A DNA stretch of 64,000 nucleotides from a virus, in the IMG/VR virus record IMGVR_UViG_3300020048_000027, positions 32,001 to 96,000 of that record; one strand, 5' to 3'. Below, piece by piece: positions 40,541-44,933 of this stretch; the first letter of the stretch is position 1; each line of letters starts with the position of its first letter. Position numbers and translations under genes: made by a program. Under the pieces are notes generated by a model. It had not been told where the DNA came from. It did not search any database and worked only from the letters and a program-made list of their open reading frames with translations.

Positions 40541-40595
40541 TTGATTATTTGTTTAATTATTAATGTATAACGTCTGTTTTTAGCATAACTTATAT

Positions 40596-40850
40596 CTAAA
40601 TATACGTTAAATAATCGTAGCAACCAACTTTATTTTGGAATTTAGGTATCTTTTCTATATACTTATTTAAATTACTTTTCACTATAAACCGCTTAGGAGT
40701 AATCCATATTCCAACGCTCCCTCCATTATAGCATATTTTCTTTAATCTACCTGTCTGTGTGTTAAAGATCTTTTTACATGTTGAAATTTGGATGTGTGGA
40801 TAGTCTACAAATCTCCATTTCAAAGTGTAATTAATTGATATTGAATTCAT
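40596..40850 (-). CDS. Hypothetical protein
   Basis: 84 aa, inside the first hairpin loop of the array. Confidence 0.65.
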   Translation of the reverse strand: MNSISINYTLKWRFVDYPHIQISTCKKIFNTQTGRLKKICYNGGSVGIWITPKRFIVKSNLNKYIEKIPKFQNKVGCYDYLTYI

Positions 40851-40891
40851 TATGCTTTGGTATTTGTTAGTATATTAATTGTTGTAAAACA

Positions 40892-41179
40892 TTAAAGCTG
40901 ATGTTGGCTATCGTATATTTGTGAAAGTTCAGTAAAAGTATATTCTTTGTCTTTGTATAAAAACATTCCATAGCCTAAGTACCTCGCGTCTTGTTTTATC
41001 CAATCCCATAAAGTTATTTCTTCCTTTTCCTTTAACGATTTTACAACTGCGGGTAAAATTAACGCTTGCTTTTTCGCTTCTTTTAAACATTGAATAAATG
41101 CCCATTTCTCTTTTTCAAGTCCATCTAAACTATCACACATTTCTATTTTTCTCTCTAAGTACTCTATCATTTTTTCCAT
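40892..41179 (-). CDS. Hypothetical cassette protein reading across an attC-like site
   Basis: Junction ALILPA|VVKS at 41047. Confidence 0.7.
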   Translation of the reverse strand: MEKMIEYLERKIEMCDSLDGLEKEKWAFIQCLKEAKKQALILPAVVKSLKEKEEITLWDWIKQDARYLGYGMFLYKDKEYTFTELSQIYDSQHQL

Positions 41180-41238
41180 AAATCTTATTTTTTTTAATTA
41201 ATTCGCTTGTAATCTTACCCGCTTAAAGTTAAAAGCAA

Positions 41239-41544
41239 TTACAAGTTTTCTCGCTCTTTTCTAAGTCTTTTTAACTCTTTTCCTATATGTTTTTTGGCTG
41301 ACATATCCCCAAGTTCGTCTGCATTTATATAGCTATCTTCTAAAATATGTATCTCATTTGTAACTTTAGTTAATTGTTCCTCAATCTCTAAAACTTGCAA
41401 CGTGCTATTAACTGCGCAAAAGGTTAATGCTTTGCCAAGTTTAGCAAATACCATATCAAAATCGTCATAACTAATTTTATCAGCGAAGTACATTTCTGTA
41501 AACACTTTGCCTAACTCTAGTAATTCTTTTTTTATTTCTTCCAT
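41239..41544 (-). CDS. Hypothetical cassette protein reading across an attC-like site
   Basis: Junction ALTFCA|VNST at 41412; C-half homologous to 44500..44835. Confidence 0.7.
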   Translation of the reverse strand: MEEIKKELLELGKVFTEMYFADKISYDDFDMVFAKLGKALTFCAVNSTLQVLEIEEQLTKVTNEIHILEDSYINADELGDMSAKKHIGKELKRLRKERENL

Positions 41545-41605
41545 AATAATTAAATTTTGTATTTATTAAATCGCAATAACATTTTACGCTTATAGTTGTA
41601 GTTTA

Positions 41606-41834
41606 TTACCGTTTTCTTAACCATTCTATACAATCAATGAAACCTTGTTTGTAAATTTCATCGTCTCTGTATGTTTGTAAAGTTTCTGTAAATCCTCTAT
41701 GTTTTTTTTTTAACTCTTTTTTCTATTTCCGAAAACTGTTCTTCTTCTGTCGGTAACAAAACCCCAACTAAATTATAACCATTATTTTCACTTTCTTTTT
41801 TATTTACGATATTTCCATATATGCTTTTTGCCAT
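41606..41834 (-). pseudogene. Cassette gene frameshifted in an A10 tract
   Basis: MAKSIYG...NL|VGVLLPT; with A9 at 41702-41711 the frame continues to KQGFIDCIEWLRKR, matching the 42785 C-terminus. Confidence 0.6.
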
Positions 41835-42185
41835 TTCTTTATTTTTTAAGTTTGTTAATATTCCTTTAAAACAATGGTTATACTCATCGTTATAAAACAT
41901 TTAAACTTTGTTGTAACCTGTCTATTTCTGCGATAAATATATCAATATTTACATCTATTTGTCTTTTTTCTAACTTAAGTAATTCTATTTGCTTATAGTT
42001 AAAGTCAATACTTTCTTGAATGTTTTTTTTGTCCATTTTTTAAACGTTTAATAACTATGCAAATAATTTATATTGCGTAGTCGGTTAGTATTCAGTTTTT
42101 GTTAATCAATTTAATTTATTTCAATATTTAAAATTCGTAATTCTTAGGCAATACAAATCATTTACTAATACAGTTAGCAGTAATA

Positions 42186-42407
42186 CTAACCTTCGTTCTC
42201 CCAAACAATAGATTTGTACATACTCTCTATTCTACTATGTAATGCGTTTGAAACTTCCATTTTGTTTCCAAGTGCTTCATTCGCACATTCAGCAGCAAAT
42301 CTTTTCGCTACATCTTCTGCATACATTTGCATTAATTCTTCCGTTGTAAAGTTTCCTTTAATTGAATTGTAAAACTCCTTTGCTGTTCTTAATTGATAAA
42401 TTCTCAT
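42186..42407 (-). CDS. Hypothetical cassette protein
   Basis: Wholly inside segment 42173-42449. Confidence 0.7.
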   Translation of the reverse strand: MRIYQLRTAKEFYNSIKGNFTTEELMQMYAEDVAKRFAAECANEALGNKMEVSNALHSRIESMYKSIVWENEG

Positions 42408-42442
42408 TTTATTTATATTTAGTTGTTAATAATCCGTACTAC

Positions 42443-42509
42443 TGCTAACACCACCTATACGCAAGTTTTGTGAAAAACAAAACCTGACGTATAGCTGTAA
42501 CCGTTATGC
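42443..42509. repeat. Compact attC-like palindrome
   Basis: TGCTAAC-accac-CTATACGCAAGTTTTG-loop-CAAAACCTGACGTATAG-ctgtaacc-GTTATGC. Confidence 0.75.
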
Positions 42510-42628
42510 GTAATTAAAGCCGACTTTTTATGTTTACGCTAATGGTTTTTAGGCTTTTTGTCTTTGCTTTACTTGCTATTTTCTGTAATGTTCCCTTTAA
42601 AATCGCATAACTCCGTATAAAAAATAAA

Positions 42629-42730
42629 TTACATTTTTCTTTTAAAGTAACTTACTATTAGTAATCCTATTGCAAATCCAACTGCAATACCACCAATAAA
42701 AAATACTATCATTATTTCTATTTCTTCCAT
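42629..42730 (-). CDS. 33-aa membrane peptide inside a hairpin loop (not in ORF track)
   Basis: MEEIEIMIVFFIGGIAVGFAIGLLIVSYFKRKM. Confidence 0.5.
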   Translation of the reverse strand: MEEIEIMIVFFIGGIAVGFAIGLLIVSYFKRKM

Positions 42731-43084: not shown

Positions 43085-43145
43085 AATATTTAGTATTTAT
43101 TAATTATTTTATACGTTTATACGTTTAAAGTTAGCAAACATAAAA

Positions 43146-43349
43146 TTATTCACACTCCACCTCGTCTTTTGAAAATGATATACCGTATGCTTTTGCAACA
43201 TCCCATTCAAAATCATTACCAGAATCAATTAAACTTCTTCTAATACCATTTTTTACTGTACGGTCGTTACAAAACCACCCACAATTAATAAATTGTCGTT
43301 TTACTTCTTCATCTCCTTTATAAAAAATAACTACACTTGGTAAACTCAT
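43146..43349 (-). CDS. Hypothetical cassette protein (start revised to MSLPSV)
   Basis: Inside segment 43130-43368. Confidence 0.6.
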   Translation of the reverse strand: MSLPSVVIFYKGDEEVKRQFINCGWFCNDRTVKNGIRRSLIDSGNDFEWDVAKAYGISFSKDEVECE

Positions 43350-43353
43350 AATT

Positions 43354-43584
43354 TTACGATTTGCTAACAAGGTATATATGCAATACCCTATTAAGGTTTA
43401 TATTAAATTTTAAAGTTCTCGGTACTCCGTGAAGGTCACAGAAGTAATGTATAATCTTATCAGTAAATGGTGAAAGATTACCATAATCACCTTGAAATAC
43501 ACCATTTTTAGCGGGAACTTTTCCTCTACGCTGGTCTTCAGTTAATAGATTGATACGTTCTTCCCAAGTTAATTCTCTTTCCAT
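43354..43584 (-). CDS. Hypothetical protein
   Basis: 76 aa; canonical Bacteroidota -7 box TACCTTTG upstream near 43600. Confidence 0.6.
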   Translation of the reverse strand: MERELTWEERINLLTEDQRRGKVPAKNGVFQGDYGNLSPFTDKIIHYFCDLHGVPRTLKFNINLNRVLHIYLVSKS

Positions 43585-43696
43585 ATTCTATATTTTTTTA
43601 CAAAGGTAAAACAAATTAATGACAAAACCTAACAAAGAATATGTATCATTAAAACGAACACATATTCTCAAACGTTATGTGTAATAAAATAAAAAA

Positions 43697-43912
43697 TTAT
43701 TTACCATATCTACTATTAACAAAAACTCTATTCGCACCTATTGTAAGTGATAGTTGATTTTGTTCTTTCATAAGTATCTCAAATTGATTTTCTATTCTTA
43801 ACCTATCTAAATTAATTTTTAACATATTAACCAATTTATCCAACTCTGTATCTCTTTTTGAAGTTAGAAAATCAATTTGTTCTTTGTAATGTAGTTCGAG
43901 TTTTTGTTCCAT
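43697..43912 (-). CDS. Hypothetical cassette protein
   Basis: Inside segment 43674-43946. Confidence 0.6.
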   Translation of the reverse strand: MEQKLELHYKEQIDFLTSKRDTELDKLVNMLKINLDRLRIENQFEILMKEQNQLSLTIGANRVFVNSRYGK

Positions 43913-44036
43913 TTGTATAATTTTTTATTTTACTAAATATATCAACAAATATAAGAAATAAATCTTACTTTGTCTATTTTTTAATGAAAAGATTTACTTC
44001 TCATATTTGTGACCGTTATAAGTAATAAAACAAAAA

Positions 44037-44216
44037 TTATGAGTTTTCATTTTTCTTTGTTCCATCCTCATTCCACTTTTTAAGAAACTCCTGATTTTCA
44101 GGTTTTGAAAGTTCTTCTTTCATCGCCTCGTCAAATTTATTTTGTATTTCAGTGTTTTGTTTATCTGTTAATGTATTCAAATCCTGAAAATCTTCTTTTG
44201 TTATTTTTGATTTCAT
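44037..44216 (-). CDS. Hypothetical cassette protein (start revised to MKSKIT)
   Basis: Inside segment 44015-44248 with ~26-bp terminal inverted repeats. Confidence 0.6.
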   Translation of the reverse strand: MKSKITKEDFQDLNTLTDKQNTEIQNKFDEAMKEELSKPENQEFLKKWNEDGTKKNENS

Positions 44217-44301
44217 TTTATATAATTTTTGTTTTACATACTTATAACAAAGTGTAAAAAACATTAAAACAATTTTTTATACTCAACCGTTATAAGTAAT
44301 A

Positions 44302-44463
44302 TTATTTTTGTTTTGAATTTTTATAACTATCGTGTGTTTTATTAACAGCATCTTGAACACTTTCCATCCAAGTTCTGAATATTGGTCTGAAGTTAAATAT
44401 ACTCATCTCAGCATCCCAAATTACTTTTGGTATTTCAATTTTAATAATTTTTCGGTTTTTCAT
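44302..44463 (-). CDS. Small protein, 53 aa (not in ORF track)
   Basis: MKNRKIIKIEIPKVIWDAEM...KNSKQK. Confidence 0.5.
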   Translation of the reverse strand: MKNRKIIKIEIPKVIWDAEMSIFNFRPIFRTWMESVQDAVNKTHDSYKNSKQK

Positions 44464-44499
44464 AATTTAATTTCGTATTCATTCATTTTAATTAATTTT

Positions 44500-44835
44500 T
44501 TAAAAGTTCATATTCTTAAAAGTTATGCGTAATTGCAGGTTTTCTCTTAATTTTCTAAGTCTTTTTAACTCTTTGCCTATGTGTTTTTTAGCGGATATAT
44601 CATCACATTCGTCTGCATTTATATAGCTATCTTCTAACTCATATATTTGTTGTGTTAGGGATTTTTCCCCCAATGAACCAACCTTTAACTTTCCGCTAAC
44701 TGCGCTTAAATTTGATTGCTCGTTATGGTATTCTTCGGCAATATTTGCACATTGACTTGCTATTAATTCTTTCCTTGGGTTTGTATCTAACCACTTTTGG
44801 AATTTCGCTATTAATTTTTTTCTATCTTCTGTCAT
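44500..44835 (-). CDS. Hypothetical cassette protein reading across an attC-like site
   Basis: Junction SNLSA|VSGK at 44700; C-half homologous to 41239..41544. Confidence 0.7.
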   Translation of the reverse strand: MTEDRKKLIAKFQKWLDTNPRKELIASQCANIAEEYHNEQSNLSAVSGKLKVGSLGEKSLTQQIYELEDSYINADECDDISAKKHIGKELKRLRKLRENLQLRITFKNMNF

Positions 44836-44933
44836 AATTTTTAAATTTTGTCTTTTATTTATTGTTTTTAAATTCTAGTTTCTATTAACCACCCGCCCAA
44901 ACTAATAAGTATATACTGTACCCTCTAAAATTC

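Follow-up and report, generated by a model that had tools for sequence, protein, structure and literature searches.

A phage-borne array of small gene cassettes with structure-defined folded sites, probably an integron variant of Bacteroidota

The stretch of 64,000 nucleotides analysed here (the window, from virus record IMGVR_UViG_3300020048_000027) contains an array that is probably, with a probability of roughly 0.74, a recombinase-less, phage-borne array of about 12 mobile gene cassettes belonging to a Bacteroidota variant of the integron with structure-defined, folded sites. This variant is characterized by inverted gene orientation, a 5/1-nt asymmetry of the spacers and gene starts within long sites. 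No description of an integron variant with this signature, or of its Xer-like enzyme, was found in the literature, while clusters of phage attC sites that lack an integrase (CALINs) had already been published in 2023 (PMC9892861).

All genes of the array lie on the minus strand, the G+C content of the region is 26-28%, and each unit, running from one GTT to the next, carries one whole gene. The units are listed below by their positions in the window.

40881..44900, minus: complete array of 12 cassette units, read from each GTT to the next on the plus strand
40881..41227, minus: unit 1, gene g1 (40892-41179, 95 aa); matched ends 40881-40889 and 41039-41047 (9 nt, perfect); site arms 41049-41061 and 41210-41222, the loop holding leader, ATG and N-terminal half of g1
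41228..41594, minus: unit 2, gene g2 (41239-41544, 101 aa); matched ends 41228-41237 and 41403-41412 (9/10 nt); site arms 41414-41430 and 41573-41589
41595..41888, minus: unit 3, g3 (paralogous to the C-terminal half of g7), with a frameshift at a T run (41705-41714); segment ends 41595/41768, weaker match (8/10 plus 7 past a bulge); site arms 41774-41788 and 41868-41882
41889..42172, minus: unit 4, gene g4 (41890-42036, 48 aa) entirely inside matched ends 41889/42055 (15/17 nt, A/G at position 11); non-coding site arms 42061-42079 and 42145-42163
42173..42502, minus: unit 5, gene g5 (42186-42407, 73 aa); matched ends 42173/42449 (13/14 nt, G.T at position 11); short hairpin site B5 at 42450-42502 (z -6.7; 31.6 bits)
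42503..42777, minus: unit 6, non-coding 109-bp segment 42503-42611 with matched ends 42503/42611 (8 + 6 nt); site arms 42615-42629 and 42757-42771; g6 (42629-42730, minus, 33 aa, hydrophobic) within the site loop
42778..43129, minus: unit 7, gene g7 (42785-43084, 99 aa); segment ends 42778/42946, weaker match (8/10 plus 7 past a bulge); 19-nt site arms 42948-42966 and 43106-43124 surrounding leader, ATG and 45 codons; junction GTT an in-frame valine codon
43130..43673, minus: unit 8, g8 (43146-43352) inside matched ends 43130/43368 (9 + 9 nt, 1-nt bulge between), then g9 (43354-43584); orphan half-site 43369-43419; short hairpin B8hp, arms 43636-43644 and 43660-43668 (25.7 bits)
43674..44014, minus: unit 9, gene g10 (43697-43912, 71 aa); segment ends 43674/43946 unmatched, with GTT(A) alone in common; hairpin site B9, arms 43947-43966 and 43989-44008
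44015..44288, minus: unit 10, gene g11 (44037-44264); matched ends 44015/44248 (10 + about 12 nt, span ~22 nt, bulge between); weak short site B10 at 44249-44288 (13.3 bits)
44289..44521, minus: unit 11, gene g12 (44302-44463, 53 aa); start the same as that of unit 10, GTTATAAGTAAT; degenerate, since no site is recognisable
44522..44900, minus: unit 12, gene g13 (44500-44835, 111 aa), transcribed first in the array; segment ends 44522/44700 unmatched, with GTT(A) alone in common; no 5' arm found

On the coding (minus) strand, a site consists of TAAC, a spacer of ~5 nt, a stem of 13-21 bp with a variable loop, a spacer of ~1 nt, and GTTA. The 9-15 nt past GTT pair with the 9-15 nt ahead of the unit's own AAC, so that the site of a circularised unit would form one long hairpin. 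In 69 end pairs, pairing is Watson-Crick at positions 1-9 and absent beyond position 15, and 42 of the pairs have a coding-strand G.T at position 11. Across 18 distinct sites, 97.7% of stem cells are paired and 16 of 20 stem pairs show compensatory changes, a number reached by none of 500 shuffles; a 1x1 mismatch and a bulge are conserved in the sites, and the end pairing of the paralogues g3 and g7 shows two further compensatory changes. Six sites of the window have a loop of 80-140 nt in which the gene begins, with its leader, start codon and first 23-45 codons, the reading frame then crossing the 3' arm and reading GTT as a valine codon. Long sites reach 190 nt and have no extrahelical bases.

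The sequence-only reading had described GTT-started segments that alternate with AAC-arm-loop-arm-GTT hairpins, a pattern reproduced neither by shuffles nor by the rest of the genome. An anchored scan for AAC-arm...arm-GTT detected 10 pairings in the 4.5-kb region, compared with 0.74 on average, and never more than 4, in 200 dinucleotide shuffles; across the whole 153.6-kb genome there were 15 matches, five of them in the other 149 kb. Thirteen GTT..AAC pairs with at least 9 perfect nt occur genome-wide, 5-7 of them at 40-46 kb of the window. All 11 segments had been said to end in their own reverse complement, which holds for nine but not for 43674/43946 and 44522/44700. The hairpin arms, said always to pair, do so in register in 8 of 12 intervals (13-21 nt) but not in the remaining ones, the three quoted examples being exact. 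The pairing at 44015/44248 is real, but spans 10 + about 12 nt across a bulge rather than an inverted repeat of ~26 bp. The longer spacer before GTT was confirmed on the plus strand (5-6 nt, versus 0-5, mostly 1, after AAC). Of the checks proposed in that reading, folding of each interval supports B5 (z as listed) but not the six long sites, which as a whole fold no more stably than shuffles, and a custom covariance model finds B5 and B8hp but misses the long sites. An independent model trained on three sites of phage snork9-1 matched the minus strand of the window at B5 (E about 1e-6) and B8hp (E about 4e-5), and both covariance models missed all six long sites, which are supported by their anchored register, MFE closing stems and chimeras.

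The same architecture is present in jumbo phage LR756500.1, in IMG/VR contigs L031, L038, L045 and L047, and in Polaribacter phage P12002L, and it makes up early-gene arrays of Flavobacterium, Polaribacter and uncultured phages. The unit 5 site shares 100% identity over 76 nt with a site of Flavobacterium phage mymlan6-1, and B9 is 93% identical to a site of LR756500.1. Unrelated phages carry the site modules with different cargo, the homology ending at GTTA, and these modules are better conserved than the genes they flank. In nine Flavobacterium phages, 15-nt matched ends frame nearly every array gene, including many for DNA methyltransferases, and in Mumin-type phages each segment is linked one-sidedly to its plus-right site.

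Breakpoints between relatives fall at these sites. Nine near-identical Flavobacterium phages show gene gain, loss and replacement at AAC|GTTA junctions. In other phages, AACGTTA is the only flank of a 500-bp indel and GTTATAAG flanks an insertion; identities flanking indels are only 7-8 nt. Of 111 homology-block ends, 54% lie within -3..+10 nt of GTT[AG], compared with 12.4% of random positions. Relatives of g13 and g2 retain one half at about 97% nucleotide identity and switch partner exactly at an in-frame GTT or TAAC. The N-terminal module of g13 is joined in metagenomes to at least four other C-terminal modules exactly past GCA-GTT (44698-44703), and the C-terminal module of g2 recurs in L159 with homology limits exactly at GTT and TAAC. 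Exchange is seen at both site ends; the chimeras at the coding-strand GTT involve the end left uncut in canonical integron chemistry, which counts against an integron variant. The fine-scale mosaic pattern within loops (L157) is also compatible with exchange that is homologous or driven by microhomology.

A PF00589 search of the 94%-complete phage genome revealed no tyrosine recombinase, in agreement with the earlier statement that no integrase was in view, and no recombinase was found in mymlan6-1, snork9-1, P12002L or LR756500.1. BLASTP of snork9-1 against the window's phage revealed no common protein. The enzyme had been predicted to be encoded elsewhere, and Xer-like recombinase genes indeed directly adjoin same-signature arrays in eight Flavobacteriales chromosomes and several phage contigs. 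These recombinases are homologous and lack the IntI-specific insertion. On the phage contigs the array stops 30-90 nt ahead of the recombinase start codon, and the family model matched the coding strand in five of five such contigs. No canonical IntI was detected in Flavobacteriales (TIGR02249 above cut-off in 0/401 genomes).

Short inverted repeats are common at 26-28% G+C (94 such pairs), as would be expected of chance palindromes in AT-rich DNA; this reading, like that of terminal inverted repeats of miniature transposons, has a negligible probability. The anchored pattern is missing from shuffles and from the genome remainder, the ends vary between units so that no transposase could read a common terminal repeat, and related phages contain zero inverted blocks; both readings were rejected on the anchored scan and the comparative data. 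It is unlikely, but less so, that the hairpins and 5'-3' end pairings serve the stability, processing or translational control of a polycistronic early mRNA and that the modules shuffle only by providing homology for general recombination, for which the PeSLs of T4-type phages are a precedent (PMC2839356, PMC4122927). Of the 13 arm mismatches in the window, nine form a G.T on the minus strand (G.U in the mRNA sense) and none does so on the plus strand; this wobble bias would fit RNA structure equally well and counts against the cassette reading. The position-11 G.U conserved on the phage coding strand, the better folding of AT-rich sites on that strand, the lower conservation of flanked genes than of site modules, and 5' arms lying 20-33 nt upstream of start codons also favor an RNA role. 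However, genes of the bacterial arrays that share the end signature and hairpin spacing, and those at four bacterial sites matched by the family model, lie on the opposite strand relative to the site asymmetry, so the favored fold is not in the mRNA there. Moreover, the identities flanking indels measure only 7-8 nt, site sequences vary between units, a dedicated recombinase adjoins arrays, and genes starting within loops would be severed if the RNA were cleaved at the junctions.

Enzyme-free illegitimate recombination, in which template switching or structure-specific nucleases rejoin co-infecting genomes at hairpin bases with TAACGTT as microhomology, is quite improbable. It accords with breakpoints at hairpin bases with 7-8-nt identities, with some mosaic breakpoints within loops, and with five array-bearing phages without a detected recombinase, two of which share no protein by BLASTP. 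It leaves unexplained, however, the fixed 15-nt end pairing with its position-11 G.T, the fixed 5/1-nt spacers, the conserved 1x1 mismatch and bulge, the one-sided linkage in Mumin-type phages and the recurrent adjacency to one recombinase family. An ordinary CALIN, derived by decay from a canonical IntI-type integron that was taken from a bacterium and carrying classical attC sites, is very improbable. The array does have AAC/GTT boxes and a folded L stem, and its cassette starts are the complement of their own R'' box; CALINs are reported from 17 phages, and IntI1 recombined five of the six phage sites tested (PMC9892861). Yet the only tested site of the window's family, P12002L_attC1, is the sole one without a verified IntI1 junction (PMC9892861), and TIGR02249 is absent as above. 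The array-associated enzyme without the IntI insertion, spacers of 5/1 rather than about 5/5 nt, inverted genes, and sites of up to 190 nt with gene starts inside also argue against it.

The sequence-only reading of a cassette array is upheld by one gene per unit, site modules that recur with other cargo, and relatives that break at GTT/AAC; its attC likeness holds for boxes, structure and end complementarity, but not for a canonical integron, given the enzyme and the gene orientation. As in integron attC sites and CALINs (PMC9892861; structural rules, PMC2727003), the boundaries conserve AAC and GTT only, structure is kept rather than sequence, each cassette begins with the complement of its own R'' box, R and L stems are separated by an unpaired spacer, and on one strand AAC is followed by G. 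Further features shared with integrons are breakpoints at G|TT, a single gene per unit and, in complete versions, an adjacent tyrosine recombinase. The variant departs from integrons in having a Xer-like partner enzyme, spacers of 5 and 1 nt, and an R pairing that extends over 15 nt and includes a fixed G.T at position 11. The phage cassettes carry their genes on the equivalent of the attC bottom strand, in the opposite orientation to those of bacterial cassettes. Many sites measure 120-190 nt and enclose leader, ATG and N-terminal codons, most window sites are long and without extrahelical bases, and exchange occurs at both site ends. In standard surveys, almost no integrons are reported from Bacteroidetes (PMC9024848).

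The sites also resemble the promoter/stem-loop cassettes (PeSLs) of T4-type phages as short structured intergenic modules beside small variable early genes in hyperplastic regions, marking points of insertion, deletion and replacement between close relatives. PeSLs, however, are sequence-conserved and act through homologous recombination (PMC2839356, PMC4122927). Unlike them, the sites described here vary in sequence while keeping their pairing, have flanking identities of only 7-8 nt and, in other genomes, have a dedicated recombinase. Small gene modules are moved by Xer-family recombinases in the XerC/D-dependent (pdif) modules of Acinetobacter plasmids, and the folded single-stranded attP hairpin of the CTX phage is usable by a Xer enzyme. 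Those sites are sequence-specific 28-nt dif mimics, whereas no such conserved 11-6-11 core is seen in the window's sites.

Because the window's phage has no recombinase gene, a Xer-like recombinase would be supplied by the host, a prophage or a co-infecting phage and act in trans, as we assume for this array, on sites folded from single-stranded DNA. By analogy with integrons, it would cut beside the conserved AAC/GTT, followed by excision or insertion of a unit, and, since extrahelical bases are missing from the long sites, either of their ends may serve for exchange. The sites, as shown for the short ones, belong to a family common to Flavobacteriales chromosomes and many of their phages. 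As the swap point can fall inside a gene, protein halves are shuffled, and N-terminal and C-terminal gene halves reassort into chimeric small proteins.

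The array in the window is best classed with a Bacteroidota variant of the integron, as a phage-borne array without a recombinase. It lies in a single record of 153,571 bp (completeness 94%, CheckV), of which the window covers bases 32001-96000. All long reading frames are on the minus strand, and the section at 40-46 kb, with a G+C content of 26-28%, carries about 14 small minus-strand genes, named g0-g14. Searches of the array proteins against Pfam and PHROGs gave no significant family, only g8 having a weak PHROG match, and no close relatives of g7 were found in the viral contigs searched. 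The nearest relatives of the window, reached through a flanking 303-aa protein (contigs L004-L027), contain none of g0-g14 and no array at the corresponding place.

Individual features in and around the array (window coordinates)
40596-40850, minus strand: g0, just downstream of the array; 39% identical to gp52 of Polaribacter phage P12002L, which also lies directly downstream of a cassette region
41697-41900 and 41600-41720: g3, a paralogue of the C-terminal half of g7, with a frameshift at a ten-T run (41705-41714)
43369-43419: orphan arm following the unit 8 TAAC, with 85% identity to an arm of a complete site (6387-6473) in contig L031; its partner arm is missing, and it resembles a decayed site beside g9
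47480-48040, minus strand: T5orf172/MUG113-domain protein of 186 aa (GIY-YIG-like nuclease superfamily), encoded 2.6 kb upstream of the array; relatives in contigs L047, L059 and L107

The g3 frameshift may reflect a pseudogene, a sequencing slip or programmed slippage. Between the paralogues g3 and g7, the pairing of the segment ends differs by two compensatory changes.

The sequence-only reading had parsed the plus strand into eleven GTT...AAC segments with matched ends, separated by AAC-arm-loop-arm-GTT hairpins, and this pattern was confirmed. Matched ends are present in nine of the eleven segments, the remaining two sharing only GTT(A). Genome-wide, there are 13 GTT..AAC pairs with at least 9 perfectly matched nucleotides, 5-7 of which fall within this 4% of the genome. 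The hairpins hold in 8 of the 12 intervals between segments, where arms of 13-21 nt pair in a fixed register. On the plus strand, the left arm begins 0-5 nt past AAC and the right arm stops 5-6 nt short of GTT, in agreement with the spacer asymmetry that had been noticed. A register-anchored scan gave 10 matches in the region and 15 in the whole genome, and the proposed shuffle control did not reproduce the pattern (200 dinucleotide shuffles; mean 0.74, maximum 4); a loose duplex-energy scan was far too permissive and was dropped. When each interval was folded, as had also been proposed, the closing stem was present in the MFE fold of each of the site intervals B1-B9, with folding z-scores of -3 to -6.7 for the short sites B5 (42450-42502), B8hp and B9. 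For the long-loop sites, the whole-site folding energy is no better than that of shuffles and is therefore uninformative for long-range closing stems. The arms contain 13 mismatches, nine of which read as G.T on the minus strand; no mismatch reads as G.T on the plus strand. AAC and GTT triplets stand at each parsed window boundary and are invariant in 69/69 end pairs across phages.

Read on the plus strand from one GTT to the next, each unit contains one whole gene. Units 4, 5, 8, 9 and 10 have a short or non-coding hairpin, and the gene is confined to the stretch between the matched ends. In units 1, 2, 3 and 7, the gene starts within the hairpin loop, which contains an A-rich leader, the ATG and 23-45 initial codons, and unit 12 has the same loop-borne gene start as far as its incomplete site shows; in these loop-start units, the frame continues across the 3' arm into GTT, which serves as a valine codon. 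The small gene g6 of unit 6 is wholly within the loop. An A/G at position 11 of the ends is found in units 4 and 5, and also in units 8 and 10 with an extra base. Canonical attC sites measure 57-142 nt and follow the 3' end of the cassette ORF on the same strand, whereas the window has four short (40-68 nt) and six long (117-183 nt) sites lying 5' of the gene or around its start, so that their orientation is inverted relative to bacterial cassettes. Bacterial arrays have their cassette genes on the strand reading AAC, 1 nt, stem, 5 nt, GTT, and phage arrays on the opposite strand. By the rule that a G following AAC marks the bottom strand (PMC2727003), the phage cassette-gene strand is bottom-strand-like. 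It can be speculated that, in the phage orientation, transcription exposes the folding strand.

The same sites are present in other phages. In Flavobacterium phage mymlan6-1, a site that separates DNA methyltransferase genes has 100% identity with B5 and its flanks over 76 nt, and the 462-kb phage LR756500.1 has a site 93% identical to B9; in both cases the homology ends at GTTA, the phages being unrelated and their cargo different. The alternating segment/site architecture also occurs in LR756500.1, several IMG/VR contigs and P12002L, and in nine Flavobacterium phages 15-nt matched ends frame nearly every array gene. The 69 end pairs are Watson-Crick paired at positions 1-9, have G.T (coding strand) at position 11 in 42/69 and are paired again at positions 12-15, with no pairing beyond. 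The intervening site folds on the coding strand as TAAC, 5 nt, 4 bp, a 1x1 mismatch, 6 bp, a bulge, 7-11 bp and a loop, with 1-2 nt between stem and GTTA on the 3' side. In a covariation alignment of 18 distinct sites fitted to the model, 97.7% of positions expected to pair are paired and 16 of 20 stem pairs show compensatory changes, a result reached by 0/500 shuffles; slid controls collapse.

MAFFT alignments of sites across phages misplaced the 5' arms, and the model was therefore built from three well-aligned sites and then iterated. Model R1, trained on three sites of phage snork9-1, matched minus-strand sites in the window: B5 at 31.6 bits, B8hp at 25.7 bits and, weakly, B10. In model R2 the loops became model positions, and long sites were matched in contigs L038 and L047, with none in the window or LR756500.1. 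A custom covariance model, of the kind that had been suggested, thus recovers some of the short sites of the window. The long-loop sites of the window were matched by neither model; they are an AT-rich, bulge-free variant. Directly after the last unit of the L047 array lies a candidate tRNA-Leu-like stretch, seen by eye (L047 8490-8575); that unit opens with GTTAGCAGTAGT, as window unit 5 does, and the motif is coding in L047. The IMG/VR contig L224 has a recombinase relative with eleven units upstream of it (493-6572), each opening with GTTAGGC or GTTAGAC; these units resemble classical attC boxes more closely and may represent another subtype, nearer to the canonical one.

Units of the Bacteroidota hairpin-cassette arrays are exchanged at AAC/GTT boundaries in related genomes. 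The nine Flavobacterium phages share blocks of 99-100% identity and differ in gene content, with the breakpoints located in AAC|GTTA. One 500-bp unit is flanked solely by the 7-nt AACGTTA, one insertion has GTTATAAG as its flanks, and replacements start directly after GTTA(G). Each segment keeps its plus-right site while its left neighbour changes, which is the polarity expected of one crossover point per unit. In this comparison of related phages, which had been proposed, a GTT[AG] is found at -3..+10 nt for 54% of the 111 distinct ends of homology blocks, compared with 12.4% of random positions. Exchange also reaches into genes. Metagenomic relatives of g13 share its N-terminal module at about 97% nucleotide identity as far as GCA-GTT, beyond which the C-terminal module is one of at least four unrelated kinds, all of them bounded by matched GTT../..AAC ends of their own. 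The C-terminal module of g2 is also present in contig L159, with homology from exactly GTT to exactly TAAC and different neighbours on both sides. The partner switching of the g13 N-terminal module and the bounds of the g2 C-terminal module indicate exchange at both ends of long sites, by which chimeric proteins are made.

Consistent with the earlier remark that no integrase was in view, a genome-wide search of this 94%-complete genome gave no match to tyrosine recombinases (PF00589), and none was found in the mymlan6-1, snork9-1, P12002L and LR756500.1 records or the L047 contig. By BLASTP, snork9-1 and this phage have no common protein. Searching possible hosts for IntI-like recombinases, a further suggestion of the sequence-only reading, had a divided outcome. 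The integron integrase model TIGR02249 gave matches above cut-off in 0/401 Flavobacteriales genomes and sub-threshold matches in 80/401, often near contig ends, as expected if repeated sites break assemblies beside the recombinase; many of these integrase-like matches lie 0.3-4 kb from a contig end. Xer-like recombinases, on the other hand, were found beside arrays at eight bacterial loci and in phage contigs L164, L170, L183, L186-L189, L206 and L221.

Model R1 matched 3 of 151 Flavobacteriales genomes, and in one of them (G116) the match lies within a small array directly adjoining an Xer-like recombinase. One G116 array cassette (L141 956-2542, contig 8) encodes a Drt4/Drt3b-like reverse transcriptase, indicating that a phage-defence gene is carried as a cassette of the system. 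In seven further chromosomes, recombinase homologues (36-69% identity) lie 45-220 bp upstream of arrays and are co-oriented with them; the chromosomal arrays beside the recombinase comprise 2 to 7 or more cassettes with the same end signature and, where examined, hairpins of 39-123 nt between consecutive cassettes. The chromosomal array recombinase aligns end to end with archaeal XerA. With Vibrio IntI4 it aligns only in two pieces, residues 182-241 of IntI4 standing opposite 18 residues. This IntI4 segment contains the IntI-specific insertion (PMC7790495, PMC2727003). In viral contigs, a single-protein search found nothing and an alignment-based search succeeded, revealing shorter relatives of 266-289 aa in many contigs. 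About a dozen of 80 viral recombinase loci have arrays of at least three cassettes, and in about 10 of those the recombinase start codon follows the end of the array after 30-90 nt. Cassette ORFs are co-oriented with the recombinase in 3/3 viral loci checked, and R1 matches the array coding strand in five viral contigs.

The inference of a cassette array is supported, as unit boundaries coincide with breakpoints and a recombinase lies beside arrays elsewhere. Its identification with integron attC sites stands for the AAC/GTT triplets and R''/R' pairing, and does not extend to the enzyme, extrahelical bases, site length and gene orientation. R''/R' complementarity spans 7-11 nt in canonical attC (PMC2727003), compared with matched ends in nine of the 11 window segments and 15 nt in the array family. 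The L stem and spacer are present in window sites; the canonical unpaired central spacer is about 5 nt on both sides, whereas here its two sides measure about 5 nt and 0-2 nt. The two or three extrahelical bases on the canonical R''-L'' arm that set strand choice are lacking: the long sites B1, B2, B3, B6 and B7 have continuous stems with wobbles only, and in short and Mumin-type sites the stem is interrupted by a 1x1 mismatch and, 7 nt away, by one bulge, on the AAC-G arm, opposite to the canonical arm. Canonical integrons encode an IntI with the I2 insertion, which is absent here, the array-linked enzyme being without it. The window shares with Bacteroidota hairpin arrays the order TAAC, about 5 nt, stem...stem, 1-2 nt, GTTA and unit ends pairing over up to 15 nt with G.T at position 11, while their abutting Xer-like recombinase gene is missing from this genome. 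The element works like an integron cassette array, yet it departs from canonical integrons in several defining features.

Other explanations fit less well. Promoter/stem-loop (PeSL) cassettes of T4-type phages repeat a single conserved promoter and stem-loop at all junctions, whereas the window arms differ at every site, and neither a direct-repeat family nor, by eye, consistent Bacteroidetes promoter boxes were found at the window junctions. That the arms are promoters was rejected, as a TAnnTTTG box was seen by eye in only a few sites (B9 and two of LR756500.1) and is not general. Invertible, shufflon-like segments were rejected, no inverted homology blocks being found among the nine phages, and so was a tRNA origin of the 76-nt identity, as ARAGORN found none. 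Which enzyme acts, that its substrate is single-stranded, and where exactly it cuts are inferences. A further-reaching reading, with a probability of roughly 0.45, is that Bacteroidota and their phages run their own integron analogue. In it, structure-defined hairpins would be the substrate of a short Xer-like recombinase that lacks the IntI insertion, phage cassettes would be reverse-mounted, and gene-start sites without extrahelical bases could exchange at either end, so that whole genes are shuffled and small proteins gain new combinations of N- and C-terminal halves.

Standard surveys report hardly any integrons in Bacteroidetes (PMC9024848), where IntegronFinder surveys found only cassette-less integrases and one complete Salinibacter integron. 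Integrons are also rare in phages: Qi et al. (2023) predicted attC clusters without integrase (CALINs) in 17 of 10,705 genomes, and 5/6 tested sites recombined with IntI1, P12002L_attC1 being the sole one without a verified IntI1 junction (PMC9892861). P12002L_attC1 belongs to the present site family and is located between two methyltransferase cassettes. The paper on the Flavobacterium phages noted their variable methyltransferase content and mentioned no cassettes or hairpins, and our literature search found no description of a Bacteroidota hairpin-cassette variant.

If this reading is true, a whole branch of cassette platforms has been overlooked because its sites and enzyme fall outside standard models; this branch would take in much of the early regions in Flavobacterium, Polaribacter and jumbo phages. 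The enzyme and its strand choice are directly testable, as phage and host isolates are available (Flavobacterium LMO6/LMO9, Muminvirus). Many cassettes of the Flavobacterium phages compared carry DNA methyltransferases which, together with the bacterial Drt-like reverse transcriptase cassette, suggests that both sides of the phage-host conflict may use one exchange mechanism. In-frame exchange points would be a new route to viral protein diversity.
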